This document shows, in pieces, positions 220-20,558 of a DNA stretch of 34,720 nt (its first letter is position 1; each line of letters begins with the position of its first letter). The notes beneath the pieces were generated by a model. The model was not told the origin of the DNA. It searched no databases and worked only from the letters and a program-made list of their open reading frames with translations. The position numbers and the translations under genes were made by a program. This DNA is from a virus. Taxonomy: Duplodnaviria > Heunggongvirae > Uroviricota > Caudoviricetes. The stretch is from IMG/VR virus record IMGVR_UViG_2529293223_000013; one strand, 5' to 3'.

Positions 220-300
220 CGCGAGCACCTCTTCCGGTTTTGTTGATGGTGCCATTTTAGTTAATTTATCCTTATAAAACAAATAGATAAAATAAAAACA

Positions 301-1943: not shown

Positions 1944-1957
1944 TTTTCGTCACCTCC

Positions 1958-4405: not shown

Positions 4406-4825
4406 TCGTGTTTCCGCTTCGCCGGAGCGCCTTTTCGCGCCATGTGATGAGTTCGGTCAGGCTCATGGGATACAGTTCTGATGGCGGCCAGTGAAATATC
4501 ACTGCCACATCCGCCATCAGGTCATCGACCGAGAGATTTTTCGGAAACGTCACTGCACCGAGTTCGGCGACAAAAAACCGACCACCTTACCGGCCAGCGC
4601 CACAAGGTCAGGCAGTTCCAGCGCGGCGACCTCCTGTTCGGTCAGCATCGGTGCCGCCATGCGCGGCAGCACTTTAATCAGTGCATCGACTTCGGAGTTC
4701 GCGACCGCAGCCAGACTGACACCGCGCAGCGTCCCGGCATTGGGTTTCATCAGCGTGACCTGTTCGATAACCTGCTCACCACGCTTGACCGGATTGTCCA
4801 GGGTAATCACATTTTCTTTGTTCAT
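4398..4825 (-). CDS. E': Tail assembly chaperone E+E' made by programmed -1 ribosomal frameshift
   Basis: On the minus strand the E frame contains GGT TTT TTG (plus-strand caaaaaac at 4571..4578). Slipping -1 there opens a frame reading VAELGAVTFPKNLSVDDLMADVAVIFHWPPSELYPMSLTELITWREKALRRSGNTNE and stopping at 4398..4400, overlapping the T start codon at 4403..4405. The fusion is about 142 aa, as for P2 E+E'. Confidence 0.75.
4550..4825 (-). CDS. E: Tail assembly chaperone E (P2 gpE)
   Basis: 91-aa ORF ending ...GKVVGFLSPNSVQ. Size and position match P2 gpE, directly upstream of T. Confidence 0.85.
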   Translation of the reverse strand: MNKENVITLDNPVKRGEQVIEQVTLMKPNAGTLRGVSLAAVANSEVDALIKVLPRMAAPMLTEQEVAALELPDLVALAGKVVGFLSPNSVQ

Positions 4826-4881
4826 GGTTTTCTCACTTCTGAATCAGGGTTAACCGGTCAGCCAGGCTGACCGGATGAAAA

Positions 4882-5400
4882 TCACAGGCCGATATTTCGG
4901 CGGTGTTGCTCCAGCCGGTCGACGCCGTTCACCTTCTCAATCATGTTGATGGTGTCGATTTCGACCAGCTCCTTACCGTCCATCGTCAGCCGGAAATAGG
5001 TGCAGACCACGGAGATTTTCGACTCGGTGTCTTCTCCCTGTTTACCCTCGCCGGTGTCGATTTCTTTCTGACGTCCACGCATGACCACTTCGACGGCCAC
5101 CGTTTCGCCGGTATCGTCGCGCTGGTAAGAGCCTGCAAAACGAATCGGCACGGCATCCACACCGGTTGCGGCGTAAAGCTCCCAGATAACCGAATCCGGG
5201 AAGCCCCCGAGCGACCACTCCATTGACAGCGCATCGTCATCAAGGCCGAGGTCTACCGGTGCGCTGCCGTTCATCCCCGCACCGCGATAGTTTTCGAGCT
5301 TACGGGTCAGTTTTGGCAGCGTGACGGACTTTGCAACGCCCTGATAGCTGTAGCCGTTCAGAAAGACGTTCATTAACTTGAGTTTGCGCGGCATTGCCAT
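4882..5400 (-). CDS. FII: Tail tube protein (P2 gpFII)
   Basis: 172-aa ORF, P2 gpFII size, directly downstream of FI. Confidence 0.9.
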   Translation of the reverse strand: MAMPRKLKLMNVFLNGYSYQGVAKSVTLPKLTRKLENYRGAGMNGSAPVDLGLDDDALSMEWSLGGFPDSVIWELYAATGVDAVPIRFAGSYQRDDTGETVAVEVVMRGRQKEIDTGEGKQGEDTESKISVVCTYFRLTMDGKELVEIDTINMIEKVNGVDRLEQHRRNIGL

Positions 5401-5412
5401 CGGTCAGTCTCC

Positions 5413-6603
5413 TTAATTGCTGTTAACCGAAGTGACCAGATTTGCCAGGTATTTATCGGTGATACGCTGGCGCAGGGTCAGGTTTTCGAGAGGAGGCACC
5501 GGGGTATAGTCGTAGTCGATATACAGTTTTCCGGCCTTGAGGGTTTCCGCATCGTTGGATTCTTCGCTGAACCAGCAGGTCGCATCCACGATATAGCCGT
5601 TTGTTTTCAGCTCACGGAATTTGGCATTGATGCCGTCAACGATGTCGCGAATCAGCGTTGCGGTGATGGGCTTGTCCACCGCCCACATGTGCGCCTCAGC
5701 CATCGTATCGGCCAGCACCTGCGCGGTGCGGGTGTAGTTTTCAAAGAGGAAAAGCGGGTCATCAGAGCAGGTACGGTTACCCCAGAATCGGAAACCGTCA
5801 CGGCGAATCAGCGTAGTGACGCCTGACTCGTTAAGCAGGTCAGCATCGGTGCCGGACTCCTGCAAATCCCAGAATACGGACGCGCTGATGCCGGTAACAC
5901 CGTTCACCCCGACGTTGGACAGCGTTTTATGCCAGCCCTGCTCCTGGTCGATTTTAGCGCGCAGACCCAGCGCACGGGCGGTGGCATACGCGGTGGCGGT
6001 GGTACTGGCGACCGTATCCCATGCGAGGAAATCCGGCCAGATGACCATCAGCTCACGCTGGCTGAAATTCTGGCGGTAGGCTTTCACCTCGGAAACGGTC
6101 TTACAGCCCCATGCGCTGATATACCCGAAAGCGCGCAGCTTCTGACAGACTGATGCCAGTGCAACAGCCACCTCTTTGGTGTCCAGTCCCGGCACGCCGA
6201 GAATACGCGGTTTAACACCGGTTACCGACTCCGCCGCCAGCAGGGCTTTCAGTCCGGTGTACTGACCGTTTTCGTCGGTGGTGCCGATGATATTGGAAAC
6301 GGTCTGCGCGAGTTTCGTTTCCTCGTCGTCGCCGGTGCCGTCTTCCACACGCACGACAACGGTGACCGGTTTTGACTGGTCGGCGATGGCCTGCAACGAT
6401 GCCGCCAGCGTGCCTTTTTTACCGGCCTTTGCAATTGCGCTCTGCACATTGGTAATCAGCACCGGTTTATTGAGGGGGAAGGTTTCCGCATCCGCATCGC
6501 TGGCCGTGCAGACCATGCCGACAATGGCAGTGGATACGGTGGAAATGACGCGGGTGCCGTCGTTAATCTCCAGCACCTGCACGCCGTGATGATAGTCACT
6601 CAT
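5413..6603 (-). CDS. FI: Tail sheath protein (P2 gpFI)
   Basis: 396-aa ORF, P2 gpFI size, first gene of the FI-FII-E-T-U-D operon. Confidence 0.9.
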   Translation of the reverse strand: MSDYHHGVQVLEINDGTRVISTVSTAIVGMVCTASDADAETFPLNKPVLITNVQSAIAKAGKKGTLAASLQAIADQSKPVTVVVRVEDGTGDDEETKLAQTVSNIIGTTDENGQYTGLKALLAAESVTGVKPRILGVPGLDTKEVAVALASVCQKLRAFGYISAWGCKTVSEVKAYRQNFSQRELMVIWPDFLAWDTVASTTATAYATARALGLRAKIDQEQGWHKTLSNVGVNGVTGISASVFWDLQESGTDADLLNESGVTTLIRRDGFRFWGNRTCSDDPLFLFENYTRTAQVLADTMAEAHMWAVDKPITATLIRDIVDGINAKFRELKTNGYIVDATCWFSEESNDAETLKAGKLYIDYDYTPVPPLENLTLRQRITDKYLANLVTSVNSN

Positions 6604-6968
6604 CCGTTTAACTCCGTGGTTAATGGGTGCAACTATTTTCTGTTGGGCAGTGCATGAGACGCTATTTGACCTGGCTGGTCAGTGGATGAAACAACAGATA
6701 AAGAAAATGCGGGCAATTCGCCCGCATGTCCTGATTTGTACACACTCATTTTCCGACTGACAGTTTACATAGCCCAAACGCTATCAAATCTGACAGCCTG
6801 CTATGAGCGAAAAGCGTTAAATCTCACGATATCTGCTACCGGGAAAAATTTCGATTATCTTCGATGGGAACTTTGATAATGTAGTAAATGCCATTTTCAG
6901 CGATCACTTTTCAAGCGTGTGTAAATGATTAATGTTAAAAAATTGACTTCACTGAAATAAGGTTGCTA

Positions 6969-8121
6969 AATAGCTGCGCGGAATAGTAGATCACTTTGAG
7001 GGAACTTAGCCCGGATTGTGCGATCTGATCAATCGCCAAATCAAAACAAATCACCAACCGGACTGAGCAATGCCGATCATAGCACCAATTTCCCGTGACG
7101 AACGACGCCTGATGCAGAAAGCCATCCATAAAACACACGATAAAAATTATGCCCGCAGACTGACTGCCATGCTGATGCTGCACCGGGGCGACCGTGTCAG
7201 CGACGTTGCCAGAACGCTCTGCTGCGCCCGTTCCTCTGTTGGACGCTGGATTAACTGGTTCACGCAGTCGGGTGTTGAGGGACTGAAATCATTACCTGCC
7301 GGGCGTGCCCGTCGCTGGCCGTTTGAGCATATCTGCACACTGTTACGTGAGCTGGTAAAACATTCTCCCGGCGACTTTGGCTACCAGCGTTCACGCTGGA
7401 GTACAGAACTGCTGGCAATAAAAATCAATGAGATAACCGGTTGCCAGTTAAATGCCGGAACCGTTCGCCGCTGGTTGCCGTCTGCGGGGATTGTGTGGCG
7501 AAGGGCTGCGCCAACTCTGCGTATCCGTGACCCGCATAAAGATGAAAAGATGGCAGCAATCCATAAAGCACTGGACGAATGCAGCGCAGAGCATCCGGTC
7601 TTTTATGAAGATGAAGTGGATATCCATCTTCATCCCAAAATCGGTGCGGACTGGCAACTGCGCGGACAGCAAAAACGGGTGGTCACGCCGGGACAGAATG
7701 AAAAATATTATCTGGCCGGAGCGCTGCACAGCGGGACAGGTAAAGTCAGCTATGTGGGCGGCAACAGCAAAAGTTCGGCGCTGTTCATCAGCCTGCTGAA
7801 GCGGCTTAAAGCGACATACCGTCGGGCGAAAACCATCACGCTGATCGTGGACAACTACATTATCCACAAAAGCCGGGAAACACAGAGCTGGCTGAAGGAG
7901 AACCCGAAGTTCAGGGTCATTTATCAGCCGGTTTACTCGCCATGGGTGAATCATGTTGAACGGCTATGGCAGGCACTTCACGACACAATAACGCGTAATC
8001 ATCAGTGCCGCTCAATGTGGCAACTGTTGAAAAAAGTTCGCCATTTTATGGAAACCGTCAGCCCATTCCCCGGAGGCAAACATGGACTGGCAAAAGTGTA
8101 GCGGTATTAAGCGCAGCTATT
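6969..8121 (+). mobile_element. IS630-type insertion sequence (Tc1/mariner-like, IS630 family)
   Basis: Terminal inverted repeats AATAGCTGCGC (6969..6979) and GCGCAGCTATT (8111..8121), continuing as imperfect repeats of about 28 bp. Flanked by a TA dinucleotide on each side (6967..6968 and 8122..8123); removing the element restores CTAG. Length is exactly 1153 bp, which I recall as the IS630 length. Contains one 343-aa transposase ORF. Confidence 0.85.
7070..8101 (+). CDS. IS630-family transposase (DDE)
   Basis: 343-aa ORF inside the inverted repeats with an N-terminal HTH-like region, matching the IS630 transposase as I recall it from Shigella sonnei. Stop codon lies within the right inverted repeat. 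Confidence 0.85.
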   Translation: MPIIAPISRDERRLMQKAIHKTHDKNYARRLTAMLMLHRGDRVSDVARTLCCARSSVGRWINWFTQSGVEGLKSLPAGRARRWPFEHICTLLRELVKHSPGDFGYQRSRWSTELLAIKINEITGCQLNAGTVRRWLPSAGIVWRRAAPTLRIRDPHKDEKMAAIHKALDECSAEHPVFYEDEVDIHLHPKIGADWQLRGQQKRVVTPGQNEKYYLAGALHSGTGKVSYVGGNSKSSALFISLLKRLKATYRRAKTITLIVDNYIIHKSRETQSWLKENPKFRVIYQPVYSPWVNHVERLWQALHDTITRNHQCRSMWQLLKKVRHFMETVSPFPGGKHGLAKV

Positions 8122-8168
8122 TAGTATTTTTGGAGCAACCATTAATGTTTTTTATTTAAGGAATGTAA

Positions 8169-9587
8169 ATGACATACGCACTGATTGATAATTCAACTCT
8201 AACTGCAGTCCAAAGAATCGAGGGGAAAGTAAAAACAAGATCGAAGGACTCAGTAGATACAGACATAATAGCATTTGAGAACTATATACAGTCTATTTTG
8301 TTCTATGATCACGTTATCGCGGTTGATGATTATATTCCAGAGTACCGTGGGAGTAGGATTTCAAGTTTCAGAGAGATATTATTTCTTGATAAAGCACAAT
8401 ATGGGTTGGATGAAATTGAAAGTGAAGCAAAAAAAATATCTGATGCATTGAAACCTAAAATTCGTGGTGGAACATTTGTTAATGACGATTTTAAAAAACT
8501 AATTGAACTTCTTCAGACACATATCATATGTACATGGGACATTAGTTCAAGTGTTTATCATCTAACACTGAAGAACTTATCTGATGGAGGTAAGGAGTTT
8601 GAAAAATATGGTAACATTGCTGCTGCCATTTTTTCAGAACTGCGTGATGCTGCTGAGTCTGGTAATAGAACAAATGGCGATGTTGAACTTCTCGATCGAT
8701 TTGGCAACCCTATTCGCAAGGGGTACAAAGTTCCCGGAGCAAAATGGGGGGATGGCACATCTGCTGGTGAAGCATCAGATGCAATCAAAGCATTCGTGGC
8801 TTCGCTTGTATGGCTGGCTAATCGGGCAGTATTTTATTCTCTCACAGCTAAGTACCTTCAAGCAGATACTTTTTTATATCCATTACGTCAGGCGTATCAA
8901 CAGACATATTTAAGCCAAAACTGTCAGTATGGTTTTGACTATGCTAAACATATTGTAGAAAACTTTTCCACTTCGTTAAGTCATGATCTCATTGATATTC
9001 ATTCTGGTGGTAAAGCTGTAGCAACAGCAACTTCGCTTCCTTTATTTTCGGCATGGCTCGCAAAAGAAACTGGTGATCCAAGTTGTATTGTTGAAGCTGC
9101 TTATAACATAAGGGACAACAACGAATTTGTAAGGGCCCGTGAGAAAATGCGAGAAATAAAGCGCTTGTTTGATGAAAATGAATTGCCTCAAGCTAATAAG
9201 TCAGTAAGAGCATTGCTTACTGAAGTATCGAAAGAATCAGATTATATTCGAACTAAGTATGGGCTCAAGACTAGACAAGGTGTACCTGTAACTAAGCTTG
9301 TACATGTATACAATACTGTTGCGGCTATTAATTCCCTTCCGAAACTACCGACCTTTAATTTTAAAGTTAAAGTTCCTGATTTCTTATATGATCTTAAAAA
9401 ACCCAAGGGGTTTCGTGCTCTCTATCGAAATTTGACTAATGATCTTTCTACTGTGTGGTCGTTAGGAGAAGCTCGAGATATTCTTGGAAGTAAAGTTGTG
9501 ATAGATAATCATGCAAGAATTTACAGTCCGAAGCATGAAGAACCGCGTTTCAAAAACTCTCATTCCCCATATAAGAGCCCGATGTAG
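8169..9587 (+). CDS. Uncharacterised 472-aa cargo protein in the FI-G (Z/fun-equivalent) hotspot; function unknown
   Basis: Uninterrupted 472-codon ORF with a Shine-Dalgarno-like AAGGA 7-8 nt upstream of the ATG. Hand counts on two 60-nt stretches give roughly 30-38% G+C against about 53% in a sampled structural-gene stretch. Opposite strand to the flanking late genes. I do not recognise the sequence or any canonical motif. Confidence 0.6.
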   Translation: MTYALIDNSTLTAVQRIEGKVKTRSKDSVDTDIIAFENYIQSILFYDHVIAVDDYIPEYRGSRISSFREILFLDKAQYGLDEIESEAKKISDALKPKIRGGTFVNDDFKKLIELLQTHIICTWDISSSVYHLTLKNLSDGGKEFEKYGNIAAAIFSELRDAAESGNRTNGDVELLDRFGNPIRKGYKVPGAKWGDGTSAGEASDAIKAFVASLVWLANRAVFYSLTAKYLQADTFLYPLRQAYQQTYLSQNCQYGFDYAKHIVENFSTSLSHDLIDIHSGGKAVATATSLPLFSAWLAKETGDPSCIVEAAYNIRDNNEFVRAREKMREIKRLFDENELPQANKSVRALLTEVSKESDYIRTKYGLKTRQGVPVTKLVHVYNTVAAINSLPKLPTFNFKVKVPDFLYDLKKPKGFRALYRNLTNDLSTVWSLGEARDILGSKVVIDNHARIYSPKHEEPRFKNSHSPYKSPM

Positions 9588-9701
9588 CTTAAGAAAAAGA
9601 CACGCCCACCTTGTGCGTCTACTTCTGGCACAGAGCGGACTCTCAGATTAGGCTTTACTCTGTGCCATAGATATGTAAGCTCACACCAGAGCTCATACAA
9701 C

Positions 9702-10229
9702 TTATTGCGGCATTTCCGGCCATTCAGGATTTGCAGGATCCACACGACTGACCAGAACACTGTAGCGTTCCCATGCCTCCAGTCGACTGCGCTCCTCATC
9801 TGTTGCCATATTCAGCCTGACAGCGCGCTCCAGCGGCAAAATCACGGATTCAGCATCTGCAAGAAGTCTGGCTTTCCGATTTTCTGCCTGCTGCTGCAAT
9901 TCCTCTGCCGTATAAATTCGTTTAATCACTGTACAGTCCTTAAACATCCAGTTCCCTGAAATGTCCGCCCGTCGGTTAGCAGTAATATCCGGCACTTCAA
10001 CAACACTTAATCCATCCGGTCTGATAGCTGTCACATCCTTTTCCACATAGCGGATAATATTATCTTTGTCGTACGCTATTTTTATCGTGTCATCAGCAAA
10101 ATACTTTTGTTCTTCGTACCAGTTCTTACCATCTTCTGAAAAAAACCAGACAACATCAAAGTCCTTTGTCAATTGATATTGTTCAACCGTTTTTGGATTA
10201 CCTGCCGTTATATTTATCAAATGCTGCAT
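9702..10229 (-). CDS. G: Tail fibre assembly chaperone (P2 gpG)
   Basis: 175-aa ORF, P2 gpG size, immediately downstream of the tail fibre gene. Confidence 0.85.
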
Positions 10230-10232
10230 AAA

Positions 10233-11173
10233 TTATACCTGCGCCACGTTATACCAAGTCCCGTTAATGTATTTCTGCACCGGTCTGTAATATACGCCAC
10301 CAATGTTATCGGCAGAGTTTGAGCCGGTATCCTGAACAATAATGCCGGAATATACACACCCGGACGGTGCCTGATGTGTCCATGTCATACCATTGTTCGC
10401 AGGTTTGTATGTGGCAGCACCACCAAGCCGGATATCCCGGACATAGCGTGAATCAAAGTTGCCATAGTTAGATGGTGATACCTGCCCGTTAACAGCAAAA
10501 GTGATGCTGTTATCTGTATTTCTCTGACTGTAAAAATGCCAGCCTGCATCATCACCTAATTCAGCCACCACAGGACGACTTGAGTTTCCCCACAAATTGA
10601 ATGCGGCTTCCTTCGTGGATGTATTGCTGCTGCTGACCGTGAACTTTTTCCCGCTACCGGCACGTACTTTGGTACTTGAGACAATATCACCTGTAACACT
10701 CAGGCCATGCCCCATTGACACTCCGCCATTGGCGTTATTGATAGTCAGCGGTCTTAAGCCGTTCCATGTCCCAAATTTATCGCCAGAGGCCGTCAGCATT
10801 AAATATGTGCTGCCGCCATCATTCCTGATAAAGAATCCATAATTGCCATAAGCAATGCGCAGACCATTAGCACTGAGTGATGTAATTTCACCTCTTGAAC
10901 GGAGACCATAAGCGGAGCTGAGTGATAATTCTTCCTGAGCGTCATTGTTTCCTGTCGCCCAGCGAATTACCCCGCCCTGAACTGTTTCATGCCAGATAGT
11001 ATCTCCTTCTCCACCACGAAACTTTCTGAGATATTTTTTGCCGCCTCTGGTGCCTGAACATAAGGCCGTAGACATATAGGCATTCTGGCTTCCGCCATCC
11101 TGATTAATCGTTCCGGTCATTGAGTCGCCCTGACGATTCCAGTCACGACGCCAGCCGGGGGAGTAGCCGTCCC
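10233..11173 (-). pseudogene. H: Tail fibre protein H, C-terminal portion (gene interrupted by an IS element)
   Basis: Open frame continues from the IS boundary down to the stop at 10233 (ORF track 10233..11120). Gly/Ser/Asn-rich receptor-binding-like sequence. In frame with the N-terminal fragment once the 1304 bp of IS plus duplication is removed. Confidence 0.8.
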
Positions 11174-12467
11174 CTGAGGGATCCCCAGAAAATTTAGTAA
11201 ACCATTATCATATTGGTATACCGTTGCTGTAGAACTTTCAGCCCTGCGTCAAGTGACAGTGTGTTTAGTATGAGTGGAGAATGTCGAATCACATTCTCCG
11301 CCAGTTTTAATAACGAGATGACTCGCCTGTGCTTCACTGTATTTGCCTGATATTTATGATGTATCCCTTTGTTTTCCAGGCTGAAACCGCTTAACCACAT
11401 AATGATACTGGCTAATGTTGCGATCAGACTCAATACCGTGACCCGCCCGGATGAATGACTGGCACCAAACCGTAGTCCAAATCCCCAGCGAGGATTTTTT
11501 TCATCCCTGAAATTTTGCTCAATTTGCATTCTACGGCTGTATAATTTCATTACCTGTTTTGGCGAGAACTCAGTACTGTTTGTGAAAATAAACCATGGTG
11601 ATTTCCCGGCAGTACGAGCTTTAGCCGTCACCGATGGTCTGGTTGCTCTTTCCTTCGAGCGTTTAAATCTACGACCTTTAGGCTTACTTTTATAAAGATA
11701 AAAATGCCCTTCATGTTGTGCATTTTTATCTCGACCCAGCAGGCCTTCACCTAAATAAATTGCTGTCGTTGATGCTTTTGTGCCTGAGTCCGACACCTTT
11801 TCCCAGCCATTACCAACATTGTAATAATGATTGCCCAGTACCCGGCAAATATAGGTCCAGCCACGGGAGCGGAGCTGTTGGAACCATCGCCCCTGAAAAC
11901 CGGCATCTGTAATAACAATGACATCAGTCCCGGGGGAAAAGCACTCAGCAAGCGATTCCAGAAAACGCTCATGTACATCTGCATTCGCTGTCTGTGATGA
12001 TGGAACGACACAACTCATCAACGGTAAAGAACGCCCGTCACATGCCAGGCTTGCCCGCAAAAGCTGAAAACGAGAGGCATGATAAGCACTCCAGTCAATG
12101 AGTATCACAACACGAGACATTCCCCGCGTAATCTTTTGGGTAATTCGCTGAAAAATGGTGGAAACCTCATTTTGCAAATGTCGATTCCCCAACAGTCGAT
12201 CCACCCGCTTTATTTTGTTTTTAACTGATGCCGTACCGGTTAAATGACGCCCGATACTGGTAAGTGTGAGGGAAGCGCCATTTATTACAGCATTAGTTGC
12301 GTCAATCAGTGATTTTTGACGGTAAAGATGCAAAGGGGCCAGTATGTTGTTAAGGAAATTTTGGCATAATGAACGTGCAGGCATAGTGGTGATCTCCTTG
12401 AAATTGTTAGCACAATCAATTAGATCACATCTCACTATGCCTGTCTTGTTTTCTGGGGATTCCTCAG
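11174..12467 (-). mobile_element. IS4-family (IS10-like) insertion sequence inside tail fibre gene H
   Basis: Terminal inverted repeats CTGAGGGATCCCCAGAAAA (11174..) and TTTTCTGGGGATTCCTCAG (..12467) with one mismatch. Flanked by direct repeats of the target (tagccgtccc at 11164..11173 and 12468..12477, i.e. a 9-10 bp duplication). Encodes a transposase with IS10-like motifs. Element ends are uncertain by 1 bp. Confidence 0.85.
11194..12384 (-). CDS. IS4-family DDE transposase (IS10-like)
   Basis: ORF 11194..12480 (-) with IKRVDRLLGNRHL and YSRRMQIEQNFRDEKNPRWGFGLRF motifs, close to IS10 transposase IKRIDRLLGNRHL and YSKRMQIEETFRDLK. The track ORF starts outside the IS end, so the true start is internal; I place it at the first in-element Met (12382..12384), giving about 396 aa. 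Start codon is uncertain. Confidence 0.75.
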   Translation of the reverse strand: MPARSLCQNFLNNILAPLHLYRQKSLIDATNAVINGASLTLTSIGRHLTGTASVKNKIKRVDRLLGNRHLQNEVSTIFQRITQKITRGMSRVVILIDWSAYHASRFQLLRASLACDGRSLPLMSCVVPSSQTANADVHERFLESLAECFSPGTDVIVITDAGFQGRWFQQLRSRGWTYICRVLGNHYYNVGNGWEKVSDSGTKASTTAIYLGEGLLGRDKNAQHEGHFYLYKSKPKGRRFKRSKERATRPSVTAKARTAGKSPWFIFTNSTEFSPKQVMKLYSRRMQIEQNFRDEKNPRWGFGLRFGASHSSGRVTVLSLIATLASIIMWLSGFSLENKGIHHKYQANTVKHRRVISLLKLAENVIRHSPLILNTLSLDAGLKVLQQRYTNMIMVY

Positions 12468-13855
12468 TAGCCGTCCCCATGATTTATGTAAGTGAATTGC
12501 GCGCTGGTTGTACCGCCACCGCTTGATGTTGTTGGCGTGGTCACTCGGATAGTGATTGCAGATTTAGTTCCCATGACCTCGACGACACAACCAGCCAGGT
12601 GGATATCACCACATCCGGTATCCGTAATGATTTTGTTATTTGCATATGACCAGGAGCCTTTGCACATCCAGTACGGATGATTAAATGCACCACGGGAATC
12701 CAGCCATTCAATAAACTGAGCGGTTGTCCAGTTTCCGGCTTCAGTGCTCAAAGCGCCGCTATAAGCACGACAGGCACCGATATTTTTCGTGAAGGTATCC
12801 TTTCCCGGAATATCCGCACCGTTCTGATCTTTCTGAAGACGTTTTTCAGCATTGTCATAGGCAGACTTCACTGCTTTTGGCGTTGCGGCCAGCGTTTCAG
12901 AATCGCTGTTGATGGCACTACTTAGCTGGACAAGACCTTTTCGCGCTGTGGTGGCATCCTGTGCAGTGTATTTCCCGTTAGCAAGGTCATACGCTGTCTT
13001 AACCGCCTTTGGTGTTGCCGCAAGCGTTTCAGAATCGCTGTTGGTGGCGCTACTGAGCTGGACAAGACCTTTTCGCGCTGTAGTGGCGTCCTGTGCAGTG
13101 TATTTCCCGTTAGCAAGGTCATACGCTGTCTTAACCGCCTTTGGCGTTGCCGCAAGCGTTTCAGACGTGCTGTTGGTGGCACTACTGAGCTGGACAAGAC
13201 CTTTTCGCGCTGTGGTAGCGTCCTGTGCGGTATATTTCCCGTTAGCAAGGTCATAGGCGGCCTTTACCGCTTTCGGCGTTGCGGCCAGTGTTTCAGACGT
13301 GCTGTTGGTCGCACTGCTTAACTGAGTAAAACCTTTTGCGGTCAGCGAGGCGTCCGGGTGACGTCGTGACTGTTCGTGCTCTGCAATTTTGTCATCAACG
13401 TAATCCTGTGTCGCCATCACCGTTGTGGTGTCAATGGTCAGCTCCACCGAGGCCACACTGCTGACGATGATGACCATGCGACAGGTCTGCGAACGCCCTG
13501 AGCCTTCGGCAAGAGCTGGCTTATAACTTTCGGCCATGTTCGCCACGGCAATTAACGTTCCCGCATCATCGTACAGGCCAAGCTCACGCATCCAGAAACC
13601 GCCCACCTCCGGCGGAATAACCAGCTCTGCGATAATATAATTACTGTTTCGTTTGTCCTGGCTGATTTTGTTCAGCGTATGTCGCCAGACTTCGTGGATA
13701 AGCCCGGTCTGTCCGGCATCCGGGACAGGCAATTTACCACCGCCATCCCCGACGGCCATCGTGGTAATGTTGACCTTCCGCCCTCCCGGTGCGGTTGCCG
13801 CTGCCAGCTTTGCTGCACCGGCAGTGGTGATAACGGTTCTGAATTTTGTGCTCAT
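12468..13855 (-). pseudogene. H: Tail fibre protein H, N-terminal portion (gene interrupted by an IS element)
   Basis: N-terminus MSTKFRTVITTAGAAKLAAATAPGGRKVNITTMAVGDGGGKLPVP... is the conserved P2-type H N-terminal domain, followed by four copies of a 44-aa repeat. The track ORF reads on into the IS until a chance stop at 12464. Confidence 0.85.
12860..13340. repeat. About 3.6 tandem copies of a 132-bp coding repeat within tail fibre gene H
   Basis: The CGTTTCAG landmark recurs at 12900, 13032, 13164 and 13296 (period 132 bp) with near-identical units. Encodes repeated KGLVQLSSATNSTSETLAATPKAVKTAYDLANGKYTAQDATTAR. Generates mirror ORFs on both strands in the ORF track. Confidence 0.9.
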
Positions 13856-13865
13856 TATTCCTCAC

Positions 13866-14396
13866 TTATCCGGGGTAAACCGTAATTACATCGCCGTCGT
13901 AAGCCACACCACCGGCGAACAGGTAGCCGGGAATGTCCCGGGTAATGTTCAGGCCAATAAGATGACGGCTTGCAGGTTTGGCATCAGCAATAAGCCGTTC
14001 CATTTCCTGATACATTGCCTCTGTGATGCCGCTTTCCAGTACACCAATATCAAGCCGGAAGGTGCCGGGCGGGTCACTGTTTTCCCACCACTCCGTCACG
14101 TTGATGAGATAGCCGAGCGGCTCCACCACACGCCGGATTGCGCCGATAGTGCCTTTATGACAGTGGATGAAATAGGCATCGCGGATAACGGCGCGTTTTG
14201 TCGCTTCCGGCCACTTTTCATCCCACCTGTCGACCGAAAACGCCCACGCCAGCCACGGCAGCAGATTTGCCGGACAGGTATCCGGGTTCCACAGTTCACG
14301 AATCCTGACCGGCGTTTTTTCAATTTCCGCACAGGCTTGTGCGGCGGCAACTTCAAGCGGTGATGAGCCGGTCGGCAGCAGTCGCGAATCACTCAT
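13866..14396 (-). CDS. I: Baseplate protein (P2 gpI)
   Basis: 176-aa ORF, P2 gpI size, between J and H. Confidence 0.85.
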   Translation of the reverse strand: MSDSRLLPTGSSPLEVAAAQACAEIEKTPVRIRELWNPDTCPANLLPWLAWAFSVDRWDEKWPEATKRAVIRDAYFIHCHKGTIGAIRRVVEPLGYLINVTEWWENSDPPGTFRLDIGVLESGITEAMYQEMERLIADAKPASRHLIGLNITRDIPGYLFAGGVAYDGDVITVYPG

Positions 14397-15297
14397 CCGA
14401 GCCTCCGGTCACGACGCGGTATTCGGTACAGAAAGACGCCTGCGTACTGTTGAGCACGATGTCGGCCAGCGGTGCAGTCAGTTCGACACGCTGCACGCCT
14501 TCCACATGCAAAGCGGCATAAATGGCAGACAGACGGATGTCGCGCCCCAGCCGGTGCTGTGCCGTGATGTACGCTTCCAGTTTTTTCACGGCAGCAGCGC
14601 GTATGGGTTCGCTTTCGGGACCAGGGTAAAGGTAAAGCGTGGCGTTTATCTGGTATTCAACGATGGCGGCAGACTGCACGGTCACGCGGTCGGCCACCGG
14701 CCTGACGTCCTCACCATTAAGGGCGTTACGCACCACCGCCAGCAGGTCTTCGGATGCGACACCGTTATTTTCACGTGACAGCACAGAGATGGTGACGCAG
14801 GCCGGAGACGGACTGGTTACAGAAATATCCGCGACACGCCCGTCGGCACTGCGACCATGATACTGATAGGCCCCCACCGACCCGGCGACGCTTAAACCTT
14901 CAAACGCCTGCTGAATACGCAGACGATAATCCGTGTCAGATTCCATCACTGCCGGTGTCGGCGGGAGGGTCGAATCATCTGCCGGGGTGATAATCAGGCG
15001 CGTGGTGTTGTAATTGGCACCAATCACATCAAGGTCATTACCGGCGGCACAGGCCAGCATTACCGCCCGTGCGGCCTCATTCACACGCTGACGCCAGATA
15101 AGCTCACGATAAGCATTTTCCTCCAGCAGTTTGACGAGAGGCTCGGATTCCAGCGTCAGGGTACGGGCGACCGCCTCCTGCTGGTCTTCCGGGTAAAGGG
15201 AAATCAGTGTCGCCTTGCGTTCGGCAAGAATGGTTTCAAAGTCCAGCTCCTCGACCACATCCGGTGCGGGTAGCTGGTTCAGGTCGATAATCGGCAT
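14389..15297 (-). CDS. J: Baseplate protein (P2 gpJ)
   Basis: 302-aa ORF, P2 gpJ size and position. Confidence 0.85.
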   Translation of the reverse strand: MPIIDLNQLPAPDVVEELDFETILAERKATLISLYPEDQQEAVARTLTLESEPLVKLLEENAYRELIWRQRVNEAARAVMLACAAGNDLDVIGANYNTTRLIITPADDSTLPPTPAVMESDTDYRLRIQQAFEGLSVAGSVGAYQYHGRSADGRVADISVTSPSPACVTISVLSRENNGVASEDLLAVVRNALNGEDVRPVADRVTVQSAAIVEYQINATLYLYPGPESEPIRAAAVKKLEAYITAQHRLGRDIRLSAIYAALHVEGVQRVELTAPLADIVLNSTQASFCTEYRVVTGGSDE

Positions 15298-15301
15298 GGT
15301 T

Positions 15302-15649
15302 TCAACTCACAGGGATGGTTAACGAAAGTGGCTGGCCGGTGTCGTTGTGCTGGCCGGTTAACGTGACCGTCATTCGCCCGTCAAAGCTGCGCGCCGTGGT
15401 GACGGATGACAGGGTGACGCGGGCTTCCCATTTCAGCACGGCCATGTAACAGGCGACCTTAATCTGCAACTCAAGCGCCGGGGTCTGCGGCTGGTCAATC
15501 ATTGACGCCAGCAACGAGCCGTAATCACGACGCATCACCCGTGAGCCGACCGGCGTGCGCAGGATATCGCCGATACTCTGGCTGATATGCTCAAGGTCAG
15601 AGACAGTCAGGCCATCACTGCGATTCATTCCGAGATAACGCGCTGTCAT
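15302..15649 (-). CDS. W: Baseplate wedge protein (P2 gpW)
   Basis: 115-aa ORF, P2 gpW size and position. Confidence 0.85.
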   Translation of the reverse strand: MTARYLGMNRSDGLTVSDLEHISQSIGDILRTPVGSRVMRRDYGSLLASMIDQPQTPALELQIKVACYMAVLKWEARVTLSSVTTARSFDGRMTVTLTGQHNDTGQPLSLTIPVS

Positions 15650-16281
15650 AGAGGACTCCCGGTTGTGCCGCCGCTGTCGCCGGGGTGTTTATGGGTATGC
15701 AGTACCTTCCCGTTTGATGAGAGTTCACCGCCGGTGTGTTCAATGTTGCCGCGCATCGTCCCGCCCTTCTGCACTTCCAGCGTGCCAGTGATCAGCTTGT
15801 TTGTGCAGACCACCTCCGGCGTGTCCAGAGTGACGCGGGTTGATGCTTTCACCGTGACCACCGGCACCGTGGCAGTAACAGAATCAGAAGCCGTCACGCT
15901 GGCCGTTTTAATTCCGCTTACCGTGAGTGCACTGGTTTCAGGTTCATACTCAATCACCGCCCCGTCAGGGAAACGGATATGCAGGGCATCCGCCGACGCA
16001 GACGGCGCGGGGTTATCACCGGAATAAATCCCCGGCAGAACGAACGCCGTGTCGAGTTCACCGCCTACGGCCAGAATCAGCACCTGTTCCCCCACGGAAG
16101 GTGCCCACCATGTGCGCGAACGTCCGGCGCGATGGGTCAGCCACTGAAGCCAGTCGGTGCACATGCCGCCGGTCTGCACACGGCAGCGACCGGCATTAAG
16201 GTCGGTTTCGACGATAATGCCGGTGCGGATCATGTTGCGCAGTGCGCGCGCGAGTTCCTGAATATTTGCGAGAGTGTTCAT
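15646..16281 (-). CDS. V: Baseplate central spike protein (P2 gpV)
   Basis: 211-aa ORF, P2 gpV size, first gene of the V-W-J-I-H-G operon. Confidence 0.85.
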   Translation of the reverse strand: MNTLANIQELARALRNMIRTGIIVETDLNAGRCRVQTGGMCTDWLQWLTHRAGRSRTWWAPSVGEQVLILAVGGELDTAFVLPGIYSGDNPAPSASADALHIRFPDGAVIEYEPETSALTVSGIKTASVTASDSVTATVPVVTVKASTRVTLDTPEVVCTNKLITGTLEVQKGGTMRGNIEHTGGELSSNGKVLHTHKHPGDSGGTTGSPL

Positions 16282-16347
16282 AACGGGAAGGATGCCGCCG
16301 GGTCATACCGGCGGCAATGTGACGATGAGGTGTCAGGAATGGCACAA

Positions 16348-16800
16348 CTAACGGTCGAGGTGAGCCAGGATAATCTCTTCAATCATCTGCACATCCTCAC
16401 CGGTAAAGCCGAGCAGGGGACGCGCCGGATAATGAATTTTCTTACCGTCTTTCCGGGTTTCTTCCGACAGACCGAACTGATGCACACTGGCTATTTTCGG
16501 TGACTTCCCGCCGTAAAACTCCATTGATGCCTGTTCAGGGCTGGTGCGGATATGCAAAAAACGACTGGTGATAAGTTTCGCAAACATTTTTCGCTTAACG
16601 CGACCGGTCTTTTTTCTGGCGCTCTGCTGCTGGCGTGGTGCGTAGGGTGTGCCGTCCGGGGCTTTCTGTGCCATCACCCGACGCTGCTGACTCTGACGCA
16701 GACGTTTCGCCAGTTCGGCGCTCAGTCGCCGACGCCCTGACGGTGACAGCGACTCAATAAGTCCGGTCAGCCTGTCTTCAAAACGCTTAAACTCATTCAT
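16348..16800 (-). CDS. S: Tail completion protein (P2 gpS)
   Basis: 150-aa ORF, P2 gpS size and position. Confidence 0.85.
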   Translation of the reverse strand: MNEFKRFEDRLTGLIESLSPSGRRRLSAELAKRLRQSQQRRVMAQKAPDGTPYAPRQQQSARKKTGRVKRKMFAKLITSRFLHIRTSPEQASMEFYGGKSPKIASVHQFGLSEETRKDGKKIHYPARPLLGFTGEDVQMIEEIILAHLDR

Positions 16801-17260
16801 CCCACTTACTCACCAGTTCGCCATTGATATAAAGCTCCATCGGGCGGGTGACCGGCTCCGGCGGCGGAGGTTCCGGGATATTCTTCACATGCAGCGCGCC
16901 GCCAACCTCACTGACCAGCGTGCGCTCGGTCAGCATCAGGCTGATACTGATATCAAAGCTGCTGTCATTGTTGATGTCTGCATAAAACGTGAAGCCCTTT
17001 TTCTGGCCTTCGTCGGTGGTCATGATGTCGGGCTGATTTTCCCGCAGCCACGCCAGCACCGGCACAATGAGCAGGTCAAAATCACCGGTAAAGTCGGTCA
17101 CAATCACATTGAGCGTGTAACGCTTTTCGAATGACAGCGACGTCGCCAGTGTGGAGGCAATACTCCCGTTATCCACGAATATCCGCAGCATATCGGGGTT
17201 AGTTTTCAGCACCGTGACGGCATCAGTCAGCGCCCTGCGCAGGCTGTCGGGTTTGAGCAT
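16793..17260 (-). CDS. R: Tail completion protein (P2 gpR)
   Basis: 155-aa ORF, P2 gpR size and position. Confidence 0.85.
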   Translation of the reverse strand: MLKPDSLRRALTDAVTVLKTNPDMLRIFVDNGSIASTLATSLSFEKRYTLNVIVTDFTGDFDLLIVPVLAWLRENQPDIMTTDEGQKKGFTFYADINNDSSFDISISLMLTERTLVSEVGGALHVKNIPEPPPPEPVTRPMELYINGELVSKWDE

Positions 17261-17513
17261 CGTTTTCGTCCTGACAGTGTTTAATCATTTTTACCTGGCT
17301 GGCACAGCGCGCCAGCGCGTTCTCAAGCTGCCGGATATCGGCACTTAAATCGCCGTTCGTCTGCGGGTCACTGCCCGGCATCGGGCAAAGACTCACTTTC
17401 GGGCAGGCGTTGTGGACAATCACTGGCGTCGGTGCAGGCGGGGCGCTGGTGCAACCGGCGCACAGCATCAGGCAGGTCAGCACCGTACCAGCGGCGAAAA
17501 TCTTCGTTTTCAT
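17223..17513 (-). CDS. lysC: LysC, outer-membrane spanin lipoprotein (Rz1-like)
   Basis: 96-aa ORF with a signal peptide and lipobox (LMLCAGC), Pro-rich. Begins inside lysB in another frame and extends past its end, the classic Rz/Rz1 overlapping architecture. Confidence 0.75.
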   Translation of the reverse strand: MKTKIFAAGTVLTCLMLCAGCTSAPPAPTPVIVHNACPKVSLCPMPGSDPQTNGDLSADIRQLENALARCASQVKMIKHCQDENDAQTRQPAQGAD

Positions 17514-17793
17514 TCAGTAACCTCGTGATGGTTTTCTCGCGCTGTGCTTCACGCTTCGCGGCGTTCTCCAGTTCCTGACGCAGTGCCACCTGCGCCAGCT
17601 CGTTTTTGTCTGCCCTGGTGAGGGCAACATGAAGCTGATTTTTCAGCACGGTGATGGTCGTCTGCTGCCCGCTGGCGACGTTGTTCGCCCTGTCCAGCGA
17701 GGCGCGCAGGCTGGCATTTTTGTGTTTCACCAGAAACAGACCGGCCACCGCCAGTGATAACAACACGACCAGCACAATCATCAGCTTTGACAT
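17368..17793 (-). CDS. lysB: LysB, inner-membrane spanin (Rz-like)
   Basis: 141-aa ORF with an N-terminal transmembrane segment (IVLVVLLSLAVAGLFLV) and a coiled-coil periplasmic domain. P2 LysB size. Confidence 0.85.
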   Translation of the reverse strand: MSKLMIVLVVLLSLAVAGLFLVKHKNASLRASLDRANNVASGQQTTITVLKNQLHVALTRADKNELAQVALRQELENAAKREAQREKTITRLLNENEDFRRWYGADLPDAVRRLHQRPACTDASDCPQRLPESESLPDAGQ

Positions 17794-18206
17794 GGTTCCC
17801 GCCCCTCAAAACGCTGACGGCAGGCCGTACGTATCAGCCGGAAGAACACCGATGCCACGAGATAAATCAGCGCGGTAAAAATCCACCCGGCAGCGACCAG
17901 CGAGATAAACGTCGCCACCATCACTACCAGAGCCACTGACCGCCTGCGCCACGGCACCGGCTGCAAAAACAGCGCCGTGACAATCTTCACGGCCAGCGAT
18001 TCCGGCGGCAGCTCCCGCCCGTAGCGTTCCAGCACATACTCAGTGGCATACACGCCGACACCACCGGCAACCACACAGATAACCGTCGCCAGAATCGCCC
18101 AGGCGGCGACAAAACTGACGGCCACACTCTGCGGGTAAATCAGGGACAGTGCCAGCATCAGCGCCAGCGACACATTCAGCATCAGTGAAAGGGATAATTT
18201 CTTCAT
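17781..18206 (-). CDS. lysA: LysA, lysis timing membrane protein
   Basis: 141-aa ORF with multiple hydrophobic helices. P2 LysA size and position. Confidence 0.8.
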   Translation of the reverse strand: MKKLSLSLMLNVSLALMLALSLIYPQSVAVSFVAAWAILATVICVVAGGVGVYATEYVLERYGRELPPESLAVKIVTALFLQPVPWRRRSVALVVMVATFISLVAAGWIFTALIYLVASVFFRLIRTACRQRFEGREPCQS

Positions 18207-18220
18207 GGTGTTTACTCCGT

Positions 18221-18718
18221 TTAAGCCGGTACGCCGCCAGCGGTACGCCAGACGGTGACCAGTTTTTCCAGTGAATGCTCACGCTGACCGTAACCGGCAC
18301 CCGGCAGGGACGCCCAGATATTGCGACAGCGTGAAATGGCGCGCTCAATGCGTCCCGCCCGGATGTCATCCAGTGCACCGCGTTCGCGGATCAACTGAAT
18401 GGCGAGTCTGTCCTGTGACAACGGACTGAAATCCGGCAGGGCAAGCTGTTTGCGGTAGTGCGGCCAGAACAGGTAAAGCTGCTGATAGCGACCGGAGGCC
18501 GTGGACTTTTCACCGCGACGGTTAAACACCTTCGCCGGTCGGCCATGCGCGAACGGGTGGTCACTGTAGTCGGTGAAAATTTCCGGCTTCCCGTCCAGTC
18601 CGGTGACTATCACGTCATAGCCCCGGTTTTTCGTCAGCGGATGATTTGCCGTCCCTTCGGACACCGCCAGCATGTCGAGAAAGGCGGCGATATTCTGATG
18701 CGTGTTAATTACCGGCAT
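18221..18718 (-). CDS. K: Endolysin (P2 gpK, lysozyme-like)
   Basis: 165-aa ORF, P2 gpK size, between holin Y and lysA. Confidence 0.85.
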   Translation of the reverse strand: MPVINTHQNIAAFLDMLAVSEGTANHPLTKNRGYDVIVTGLDGKPEIFTDYSDHPFAHGRPAKVFNRRGEKSTASGRYQQLYLFWPHYRKQLALPDFSPLSQDRLAIQLIRERGALDDIRAGRIERAISRCRNIWASLPGAGYGQREHSLEKLVTVWRTAGGVPA

Positions 18719-18999
18719 TACTGTTTCCCCCTGCCCTTAAAGCGGCGCTGAATGGCAATCTCAATCACCTGATAACCGGCGATACCCAGCATGGAGCCGA
18801 TGCCGCACACCGCAGGCAGTGACAGGTCAGGAAACTGCACCAGAACAACACCGGCAACCATCGAGACAAAACCACCGAGCAACATGCGCCCGATAAACAG
18901 ACGCGGGGTGATGGGTTCACCACCGGCAAGCACCTTGCCGACAACAATCAGCACCCCAATCATGAAAAGCGACAGGACGCTTTTTTCTTCTGCTGTCAT
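18718..18999 (-). CDS. Y: Holin (P2 gpY)
   Basis: 93-aa ORF with hydrophobic transmembrane segments. P2 gpY size and position. Confidence 0.85.
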   Translation of the reverse strand: MTAEEKSVLSLFMIGVLIVVGKVLAGGEPITPRLFIGRMLLGGFVSMVAGVVLVQFPDLSLPAVCGIGSMLGIAGYQVIEIAIQRRFKGRGKQ

Positions 19000-19002
19000 G
19001 CG

Positions 19003-19206
19003 TTACTCCCACAGATTGACAGTTTCAGCCACGGGCGCGGTCTGAACGTCGGGCAGTTCGACGGCGGTGCCGTGCGGCAGCACCGCACCCAGTTCAGCCA
19101 GTCCCGGATTTGCGGCGAGCACGGCTTCGACCACGCCCTCAGTGCGCCCGTAATACCGGACACAAATGGCGTCGAGCGTGTCGCCCTGTAGCGCAAAGGT
19201 CTTCAT
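19003..19206 (-). CDS. X: Tail protein X (P2 gpX)
   Basis: From the internal Met (MKTFALQGDTLDAICVRYYGRTEGVV...) the ORF is 67 aa, matching P2 gpX. The track ORF 19003..19275 carries a spurious N-terminal extension. Confidence 0.8.
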   Translation of the reverse strand: MKTFALQGDTLDAICVRYYGRTEGVVEAVLAANPGLAELGAVLPHGTAVELPDVQTAPVAETVNLWE

Positions 19207-19715
19207 CAGATTTGACTCACGATGCAGCGCGGTTTGTCCTGGATACGCGCCACCGCCCAGCGCATATCCCGCCACAGCTCATCAATGGTGCTGTCAATGC
19301 TGTCAGCCTTCTTGTCACCTTTCGCACTGGCATCCACGCCGCGATAACGCTCATAAAGCGACGCGGTCGCCATCGCACACACGGCGCGCTCGTAGTAAAA
19401 AACTTTGATGCTTTCACCGTCGATGTCGTCCGCCGGGACGTCCGCCAGACGCGTAAAACCGGCGGCAATTTTCTGTTCACGGTACTCGTACAGCTCCGCA
19501 TTCGTCTCCGCCATGCCTGACTTGATGGCCTCACGCAGACGGGCGGGGGCGACGGTCTGCTCAAGGCGCATACGTTCCCGGACGCGCTTCGGGTCGATAT
19601 CGGGAAAAAAGAACGTGTTTTTAATCACCGGCTCGTCGCCTGCCGGTTGCGGGATGACCACCGTACCCTCACCGGACACGGGAGCCTCCTTTCGCGGAAT
19701 AATCAGCGTCATCAT
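19206..19715 (-). CDS. L: Capsid completion protein (P2 gpL)
   Basis: From MMTLIIPRKEAPVSGEG... the ORF is 169 aa, matching P2 gpL. The track ORF 19206..19775 has an N-terminal extension. Confidence 0.85.
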   Translation of the reverse strand: MMTLIIPRKEAPVSGEGTVVIPQPAGDEPVIKNTFFFPDIDPKRVRERMRLEQTVAPARLREAIKSGMAETNAELYEYREQKIAAGFTRLADVPADDIDGESIKVFYYERAVCAMATASLYERYRGVDASAKGDKKADSIDSTIDELWRDMRWAVARIQDKPRCIVSQI

Positions 19716-19814
19716 GACTACCTCTGAAAAGTCGGGCGGTGGACGCCGGTACAGTGTCAGGTGATTCACCCACACTGACCGGCGTGCCGCCCTGGCGCGG
19801 GGCGCATTCGGTTG

Positions 19815-20558
19815 TTAACTGGCTTTCTTTTTCGGGCGTCCACGTTTTGCCGGGGTCGCACTCCGGGTCTTACGCGGGGCGCGAGTGGCCGCTTTGGGCT
19901 GCGGCTCCGGCTTCGGTTTCAGCTCCCGCTCCAGTCGTTCAATCTCTTTTTTGACGCCTGCCTGACAGTCGAGCTGTGTCGCACGTTGCAGGTGAGCCAG
20001 CGCACCGGCGGCATCACCAGCGTCACGCAGAAACAGACCGGTGATTTTGTGCAGCTTTGCGCGCACTTCATCAGGCATGTCTGCCGTGGCAGTCAGTTCA
20101 AGGGTCTCCGTCAGCAGGCGGGTATCCACAGACTCACCGGCAGCGTGAGCACGCATGGCCGCAAGCGCCACCTCCTCGGTGAACATGTACGGCGGGGTGC
20201 GGCGGTGTTTCCCCGGCATGGTCAGACCGTACTTCAAGGCATAACGGGCAATCTCCAGCGCACCGGCAATATCGCCGGTATCCAGACGCCACAGCATGAC
20301 CGTCATCAGAATGTCATCCTGTGCACCTTTGCCCTGCTCCAGCACGCCGTTCACCCACGGCAACCAGAACGGCAGCAGTTCGCGTTTTTTCGCGGCCTTC
20401 AGCTCTTTTGAATAAATCGCTTTCAGTGTGCGCTGGTCTGCGGCCAGCTTGACCAGCATCTGCTCATAGACAGTTGCATGTCGCAACGGGGCGGCTTCCC
20501 GCTGCGCGGTCATCGCTGCCGAGACCCGCATCATGTGGCGCTGTGCGGGACTCGTCAT
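19815..20558 (-). CDS. M: Terminase small (endonuclease) subunit (P2 gpM)
   Basis: 247-aa ORF, P2 gpM size, basic Lys/Arg-rich C-terminus, between N and L. Confidence 0.85.
   Translation of the reverse strand: MTSPAQRHMMRVSAAMTAQREAAPLRHATVYEQMLVKLAADQRTLKAIYSKELKAAKKRELLPFWLPWVNGVLEQGKGAQDDILMTVMLWRLDTGDIAGALEIARYALKYGLTMPGKHRRTPPYMFTEEVALAAMRAHAAGESVDTRLLTETLELTATADMPDEVRAKLHKITGLFLRDAGDAAGALAHLQRATQLDCQAGVKKEIERLERELKPKPEPQPKAATRAPRKTRSATPAKRGRPKKKAS

Follow-up and report, generated by a model that had tools for sequence, protein, structure and literature searches.

An ISEc60 insertion in the tail-fibre gene H of a P2-like Shigella boydii prophage, with predicted loss of fibre function

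The tail fibres of phage P2 consist of gpH, with gpG needed for their assembly, and adsorption to lipopolysaccharide takes place via these fibres (PMC9594776). The H gene described here shares with that of P2 the operon slot between I and G, but the fibre of P2 is 669 aa long as compared with the 772 aa of the fibre reconstructed below, and the C-terminal 144 aa of P2 H are only 57% identical to it. Indeed, the distal half of the present fibre is akin to the S′/S fibres of phage Mu and to gp34 of T4, rather than to P2 H. Disruption by insertion sequences (ISs) is a general phenomenon in prophages of Shigella and pathogenic Escherichia coli, and the present case is of the same kind, with an active host IS in a structural gene of an IS-rich genome and no mechanistic difference. 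The IS concerned, ISEc60, belongs to the IS4 family, which is defined by the signature Y-(2)-R-(3)-E-(6)-K located downstream of the third catalytic residue; IS10, of the same family, is 1329 bp long and generates a 9-bp duplication. A literature search for IS-disrupted fibre genes in Shigella prophages found nothing on this locus, and ISEc60 itself appeared in the literature searched in passing mentions only.

The window, that is, the whole stretch of 34,720 nucleotides that was analysed, contains two stretches, of 13,392 and 10,405 bp, that are 100% identical to contig AFGE01000042.1, for which the organism name is Shigella boydii 5216-82 (PMC8342411). The host is an IS-rich Shigella. A tblastn comparison with 42 P2 proteins showed a single full-length match, at 92–100% identity, for every essential protein except H, with the essential genes standing in P2 order. 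The cos 19-mer was found at position 25608, the E/E′ region is ungapped, and the int-side att junction lies at about 34290, with the ogr-side junction, seen in the source contig (L013), falling approximately 100 bp beyond the start of the window. Gene set, cos, and att together point to a complete P2-like (Peduovirus) prophage. The initial annotation had judged all virion functions other than the fibre to be apparently intact, and this is supported at the level of open reading frames (ORFs). The repressor C and the late-gene activator ogr are each 100% identical to their P2 counterparts. Induction would be a poor test of this prophage, because its repressor matches that of P2 and P2 is known not to be SOS-inducible. 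The prophage also encodes a 472-aa cargo protein, which gave no match in Pfam, NCBIfam, or PADLOC and fell in PHROGs only into a family of unknown function.

Lesions other than that in H are also present: a second IS, an IS630 at 6969..8121, two 1-bp deletions that split a PDC-S06-like ATPase gene into three ORFs, and a 1-bp deletion in orf78. The three deletions fall in homopolymers, at positions 26256, 26909, and 32294, and could be sequencing errors rather than true lesions. Together with the IS-rich Shigella host, these features could mean that other damage had inactivated the prophage beforehand, the IS in H being one of several lesions and repair of H being insufficient to restore function. 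The additional lesions are, however, confined to genes that are non-essential according to the P2 record, to orf78, for which that record states no role, and to intergenic DNA. The IS630 lies 365 bp upstream of FI, and hence beyond the pF activator site, which the P2 record places 69–97 bp upstream of that gene; the essential ORFs are full length, and cos and att are present. On this evidence, prior death of the prophage appears unlikely. Nevertheless, given the frameshifted accessory genes, H may not be the sole defect, and missense or regulatory lesions may also exist.

Gene H is encoded on the minus strand in two parts, the 5′ part at 12478..13855 containing codons 1 to about 459, and the 3′ part at 10233..11173 containing codons from about 460 to 772 and the stop codon. 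As it stands, the 5′ ORF (12464..13855) encodes 463 aa ending in GDGY and takes its TGA from the IS terminus; H breaks after codon 463, and no single frame runs uninterrupted through the receptor-binding C-terminus. Neither fragment carries a stop codon or frameshift of its own. The gene is preceded by I (13866..14396) and followed downstream by G (9702..10229, minus strand), which is the same position in the V-W-J-I-H-G operon as in P2. The tail-fibre assembly gene G is intact, encoding 175 aa that match PF02413 (Caudo_TAP) and phrog_136 and show 75% aa identity to P2 G. Residues 1–251 of H show 96% aa identity to P2 H, and the 5′ part matches PF12571 (E = 1.4e-58), the N-terminal tail-collar domain of P2 H, together with four PF03406 fibre repeats, after which a Mu S′-like domain follows. 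The 3′ part matches PF21446 and PDB entries 5yvq, 4uxe, and 5nxf, with residues 550–624 corresponding to the trimerisation domain of T4 gp34 and residues 544–771 to the Mu S fibre structure 5yvq. The first in-frame ATG of this fragment, at 11120, opens a free-standing ORF of 295 aa.

In-silico excision of 1304 bp produced a single open frame of 2319 bp encoding 772 aa, confirming the claim of the initial annotation that removal of this length rejoins H in frame as a fibre of about 772 aa. An alignment with P2-like H proteins had been suggested there as a check; against the gene annotated as 'tail fiber protein' in E. coli HCM-28C-2, which is of equal length and contains a single copy of the target site, the reconstruction aligned without gaps at 97.8% nucleotide identity, with both frame and duplication holding. 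Taken alone, the 3′ part aligns without gaps to an intact allele at 99.0% identity. The best PDB matches of the two fragments differ, being Mu S′ for one and Mu S for the other, and derivation from two different genes was considered on this account; it was rejected, as homology to the Mu S′ fibre (PDB 8ju3) crosses the junction, spanning residues 334–487 of the reconstructed protein, and an intact gene with the same mosaic structure exists. The two fragments are therefore best seen as stemming from one gene, as the alignments support.

The element within H occupies 11174..12467 on the minus strand, with its transposase in the same orientation as H, and its 1294 bp are 100% identical to annotated copies of ISEc60 (IS4 family). 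Copies identical over the full 1294 bp are found in several E. coli genomes; at least 13 records with ISEc60 annotation match at this level, the annotation reading 'IS4-like element ISEc60 family transposase', and five fetched copies showed 0 nucleotide differences from the element here. In some genomes the element is multicopy, one record containing it at as many as 38 places. The terminal inverted repeats are CTGAGGGATCCCCAGAAAA at the transposase-distal end (11174..11192) and, as read on the plus strand, TTTTCTGGGGATTCCTCAG at the transposase-proximal end (12449..12467); comparison of CTGAGGGATCCCCAGAAAA with the reverse complement of the latter, CTGAGGAATCCCCAGAAAA, gave 18 matching positions of 19. 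The transposase (11194..12384, minus strand) is an intact ORF of 396 aa, identical to WP_001111632.1 as annotated in the fetched ISEc60 copies. It matches PF01609 (DDE_Tnp_1; E = 1.8e-20), scoring 74 bits where the threshold is 23, and the NCBIfam model NF033591, 'IS4 family transposase', scoring 360.5 bits where the threshold is 152, and the Y-x2-R-x3-E-x6-K motif is present in its translation as YSRRMQIEQNFRDEK. Short inverted repeats and a direct target duplication of fixed length, both expected of IS4-family elements, were likewise found.

The initial annotation had described an 'IS10-like' element of the IS4 family at these coordinates. Position and family assignment stand, but 'IS10-like' applies only in a loose sense, the element being ISEc60 and not IS10: the transposase shows only 36% aa identity to that of IS10A/ISVsa5, and the duplication is 10 bp rather than 9 bp. 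The two elements do belong to the same family, homology between their transposases extending over 93% of the length (E = 5e-63), and the termini (CTGA...ATCCCC) presumably resemble those of IS10. A closer named relative of the ISEc60 transposase than IS10 is that of ISSfl1, at 51.6% aa identity. From the named ISEc60 copies, the element differs only in its insertion site; nucleotide sequence, 396-aa transposase, terminal repeats, and length of duplication (10 bp) are all shared.

Both flanks of the element carry a perfect 10-bp direct repeat, TAGCCGTCCC, at 11164..11173 and 12468..12477; the probability that 10 bp would agree by chance at two given positions is about 1 in 10^6. Judged by identity alone, the repeat could slide by −2 to +1 bases. 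Comparison with other copies of ISEc60 fixes the ends of the element at CTGAGG...CCTCAG, and the duplication is for this reason 10 bp and not 9 bp. A 10-bp duplication was present in 5 of the 6 other ISEc60 copies examined, two of which (L005 and L006) allow that register only, thereby leading to rejection of a 9-bp duplication combined with a 1295-bp element; a further copy (L007) is compatible with 10-bp registers only. In most copies examined, the target begins with GG and ends with CC. Of the 9–10 bp duplication originally proposed, the identity of the two copies and the length of 10 bp are thus retained, and the length of 9 bp is discarded, by virtue of the register seen in other ISEc60 copies.

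The corresponding empty site is present in public data. In two sister prophages (L011 and L012), the site is unoccupied, the target is single-copy, and the predicted H protein has 772 aa; over the final 1328 nt of the gene, a stretch that includes the site, both show 0 mismatches to the reconstruction. An apparent 1-nt gap in the alignment of L011 with the window was rejected as an indel after the junction sequences had been compared by hand, and was attributed to a BLAST extension that ran 4 nt into the IS terminus. Among complete E. coli genomes, 174 carry a colinear fibre gene of 2319 bp, and infectious P2-like phages of Yersinia likewise have full-length colinear fibres; the fibre of Yersinia phage vB_YpM_46, the stated host of which is Y. 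pestis EV76-CN, is full length and 93.8% identical. By comparison, a 37-mer scan for the exact junction gave 0 hits in GTDB species-representative genomes, and a 400-bp junction query (at least 80% coverage) found no place in a set of 5426 complete E. coli genomes, to which the source itself does not belong. Records of the 463-aa truncation product are limited to 2 contigs of a large public collection, at least one of them being from S. boydii 5216-82.

Because ISEc60 is multicopy in some genomes and such repeats often confuse assemblies, the H pieces could in principle have been joined by an assembly error spanning the repeat, or two copies of the IS could have recombined. The perfect 10-bp duplication argues against this, since recombination of two independent copies would leave unlike flanks, as do the in-frame rejoining of the flanks, which reproduces an existing empty site exactly, and the occurrence of the exact truncated product on two contigs; an artefact of this kind is accordingly exceedingly improbable. 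The unoccupied allele in public data makes this a well-documented recent transposition, and the original proposal of a recent simple insertion into a functional gene is upheld by the perfect duplication, the absence of differences in the IS, the clean fragments, the unoccupied allele, and the rarity of the product. Nothing in the sequence speaks against a simple insertion.

Overall, the data are very probably explained by a single insertion of ISEc60 into H of a complete P2-like S. boydii prophage, with predicted loss of the fibre. On this view, ordinary cut-and-paste transposition placed ISEc60 in codon 460 of H, with the 10-bp target duplication that is normal for the element. A TGA directly after Tyr463 is supplied by CTGAGG, the terminus of the IS, so that the V-W-J-I-H-G late operon can encode only H(1–463). 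This product retains the domain for baseplate attachment, four shaft repeats, and the Mu S′-like middle domain, and lacks the distal 309 residues, comprising the gp34-like trimerisation domain and the Mu S-like receptor-binding tip that works with the chaperone G. Through polarity, both G and the 3′ fragment would also be expressed at a lower level. Particles, if made, would carry no functional fibres and would not adsorb; judging from the sequence, the insertion almost certainly leaves the phage unable to attach to new hosts. Infectivity would be regained only via rare precise excision between the 10-bp repeats, recombination involving a second fibre gene, or provision of fibres in trans.

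A split fibre might, in principle, still function, either through use of H(1–463) alone as a shorter fibre or through non-covalent assembly of the 5′ product with the 295-aa 3′ product, in the manner of T4 long fibres. The distal ORF is still open and includes the Mu S-like tip as well as the whole of the trimerisation domain related to gp34, G is intact, and the transposase is co-oriented with H; operon transcripts may cross the IS, and some expression of the distal ORF by read-through may occur. In every intact relative, however, both parts form one polypeptide, and the insertion interrupts what is one continuous domain in the structure of Mu S′ (residues 334–487) rather than separating two domains at their boundary, with no known joint-forming domain at the new ends. 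Furthermore, scans of 9500..14000 for promoters and terminators found such matches to be no more frequent than in shuffled sequences. A working split fibre is therefore very unlikely.

Retention of the truncation as something useful has also been considered, with the prophage disarmed while keeping its immunity and cargo, or with H(1–463) acting as a dominant-negative stub that poisons the baseplates of invaders. The stop falls right after Tyr463 without foreign residues, leaving a clean N-terminal module with its P2-like residues 1–251, and ogr is identical to that of P2. In a specific form of this proposal, the stub would be made upon trans-activation of the late promoters by a P4 satellite or a heteroimmune P2-like phage and would block baseplates, thereby cutting the infectivity of the invader's progeny; in a weaker version, the IS would serve as a rarely reversible fibre gate via excision between the 10-bp repeats. 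Occurrence of the insertion on two contigs only, with the sister prophages empty, gives no sign of spread or retention, and the disruption of accessory genes as well argues for neutral decay. Usefulness of the truncation is thus highly doubtful, and the stub and gate proposals are to be regarded as similarly far-fetched.

Returning to the simple insertion with fibre loss, the event would be a further outcome of the expansion of ISs that characterises Shigella genomes. ISEc60, the P2-type prophage, and the type of event are all already known, and this is routine prophage damage involving no new mechanism; it has little import beyond annotation, with no standing question opened or closed. The locus does provide a clean example of the behaviour of ISEc60, namely its 10-bp duplication and GG...CC-type targets. 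It is also relevant to prediction tools that score prophages as 'intact' by gene content, and to users of S. boydii 5216-82 as a P2/P4 helper or phage source: judging from its genes, the P2-like prophage of this strain probably yields no infectious particles despite a complete-looking gene set.

The P2-type tail-fibre gene H is encoded on the minus strand in two pieces, which by ORF reading comprise a 5′ ORF of 463 aa (12464..13855) starting with the P2 H N-terminus and a 3′ ORF of 295 aa (10233..11120) containing fibre domains. They are separated by an inserted element of 1294 bp (11174..12467), delimited by its inverted-repeat ends, matching at 18 of 19 positions, and by identical flanking copies of TAGCCGTCCC (11164..11173 and 12468..12477); the element contains a transposase ORF of 396 aa (11194..12384, minus strand). 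In silico removal of 1304 bp was found to yield a single 2319-bp frame encoding 772 aa, and the initial annotation was thus correct in its coordinates, repeats, frame claim, and estimate of a fibre of about 772 aa.

The element is ISEc60: several E. coli genomes, including CFSAN029787, FDAARGOS_943/944, and RMDEC332/364, carry copies that are 100% identical to it over its full length and bear the annotation "IS4-like element ISEc60 family transposase". Compared with the copies fetched, 0 of 1294 nt differ in five and 15 nt in the sixth. The transposase matches Pfam DDE_Tnp_1 and, well over the cut-off, the NCBIfam IS4 model NF033591, and contains the YREK signature. The earlier assignment to the IS4 family therefore holds, whereas "IS10-like" applies in the family sense only, with the transposase just 36% identical in amino acids to that of IS10A/ISVsa5 and 51.6% to that of ISSfl1. 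From identity alone, the duplication in H can take four registers; in two other copies (L005 and L006), a 10-bp duplication with element ends CTGAGG...CCTCAG is the sole register allowed, and five of six ISEc60 copies have a 10-bp duplication. Thus, of the 9–10 bp originally proposed, 10 bp, not 9, is the rule for ISEc60. The duplications of the fetched copies (L002–L007) resemble each other (GGTAAATCCC, GGGGAAACCC, GGGCTACCCC, GGGGTAGCCC, GGGATAACCA), and the sequences suggest that ISEc60 may prefer GG(G)-N4/5-CC(C) targets; the H target TAGCCGTCCC, preceded by GGGGGAG, agrees with this pattern in its 3′ half only.

That H was a single gene before the insertion is indicated most directly, at the sequence level, by two public sister prophages, L011 (ENA ERZ27281774) and L012 (Logan SRR13870834), found via exact look-up of the tape-measure protein. 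In both, the final 1328 nt of H are the same as in the reconstruction (0 mismatches), including the insertion site, where GGGGACGGCTACTCCCC is present once, and H of L011 is called as 772 aa. Excision and alignment of the rebuilt H, as the initial annotation had advised, gave an ungapped, equal-length match to a gene annotated as tail fibre in E. coli HCM-28C-2, where the target is single-copy, with 51 mismatches (35 clustered in about 100 bp, at positions 486–581) and 16 aa changes. Furthermore, a match spanning at least 80% of the reconstruction occurs in 174 complete E. coli genomes, the 3′ fragment by itself is 99.0% identical to a stretch of intact gene, and full-length colinear fibres are found in phage entries that give Y. 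pestis as the host (e.g., vB_YpM_46, 93.8% aa identity). The truncated 463-aa product is recorded on only two contigs by exact look-up, and the junction was found neither in 5426 complete E. coli genomes nor in GTDB representatives. Taken together, the intact alleles, empty sites, and junction rarity show that the insertion is recent and confined to a few strains at most, in keeping with the recent insertion into a previously functional gene proposed initially. Over positions 6464..19855 and 1..10405, the window matches contig AFGE01000042.1 with 100% identity; the assembly, GCA_000211975.2, is given as Shigella boydii 5216-82 (PMC8342411).

The fibre is a mosaic, consisting of a P2 H-like N-terminus (residues 1–251, 96% identity to P2 H), four Phage_fiber_2 repeats (about residues 170–340; 12840..13330, minus strand), a stretch matching the phage Mu S′ fibre (residues 334–487; PDB 8ju3), and a part matching the Mu S fibre structure 5yvq (residues 544–771), with a match to the T4 gp34 C-terminal trimerisation domain at residues 550–624. 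The repeats, 42 aa each in four tandem copies (near-identical DNA repeats of ~126 bp), contribute much of the length by which this fibre exceeds the 669-aa P2 H. The break, after Tyr463, falls within the Mu S′-like stretch, and a TGA comes straight from the IS end, so that the product would be exactly H(1–463). P2 fibres consist of gpH, and gpG is required to assemble them; they mediate adsorption (PMC9594776), and this would presumably be lost through the insertion.

The remainder of the prophage was checked by tblastn with P2 proteins. Single full-length matches (92–100%) were obtained for Q, P, O, N, M, L, X, Y, K, lysA/B/C, R, S, V, W, J, I, FI, FII, E, T, U, D, ogr, int, C, cox, and B, and at 75% for G, while the match to A spans residues 1–754 of 761. 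The cos 19-mer is located at 25608, the E/E′ frameshift region aligns without gaps, and the att junctions lie at ~34290 on the int side and, on the ogr side, just beyond the window within the source contig. The initial view that everything else needed for a virion is intact is thus supported at the level of ORFs. The junctions (window about 34285..34300; source contig L013 10505..10535) read GTAAGGG/CGAAAT on the ogr side and GGCAGGG/AGATTT on the int side and have few bases in common with the 28-bp P2 attP core. Adjoining the ogr side are genes for an SBP_bac_3 binding protein, a ferritin, and an EamA transporter; the sister prophages L011 and L012, of the same phage type, have other ogr-side neighbours and hence occupy another site. 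P2 prophage is not SOS-inducible, and since repressor C is 100% identical to that of P2, this prophage should not be either.

Other lesions were also observed. An IS630 of 1153 bp (6969..8121; transposase 7070..8101, plus strand) with a TA duplication, ~99.5% identical to annotated IS630 copies, lies 365 bp upstream of FI and 46 bp upstream of an ORF for a 472-aa cargo protein (8169..9587, plus strand) in the P2 fun(Z) position between FI and G; the IS now stands between this gene and its promoter region. It is missing from sister prophages L001, L011, and L012. The contig of L014 (GCA_015341345.1) stops at window position 6963, beside the IS edge, which suggests that this isolate may carry the same insertion. 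The 472-aa protein, with no match in Pfam, NCBIfam, or PADLOC, matches only phrog_13435 (function unknown), over its full length, recurs with 100% identity in several P2-like prophages of E. coli, and is possibly anti-phage cargo. In the P2 old/tin position, a PDC-S06-like AAA ATPase (25913..28118, plus strand; PADLOC PDLC04886), intact at 735 aa in E. coli MSB1_4E, is broken in three (ORFs of 134, 189, and 397 aa) through 1-bp deletions at ~26256 and ~26909, in A8 and A7 runs, and is either a pseudogene or the product of homopolymer sequencing error. The orf78 homologue (32210..32376, minus strand) is frameshifted by a 1-bp deletion at ~32294 in a C4 run. These three homopolymer deletions, the only indels relative to the closest relative over 8.7 kb, fall outside the essential P2 genes, in orf78 or in accessory cargo, and could be sequencing errors; the IS630, ATPase splits, and orf78 frameshift are otherwise read as marks of decay in the prophage.

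It is very improbable that the fibre stub is retained as a dominant-negative product or that the IS acts as a reversible gate. The insertion is ordinary and well documented, with ISEc60, the P2-type prophage, and the kind of event all already known. Overall, loss of tail-fibre function is the most likely outcome of the IS insertion in this P2-like prophage, which is otherwise complete and resides in an IS-rich Shigella.
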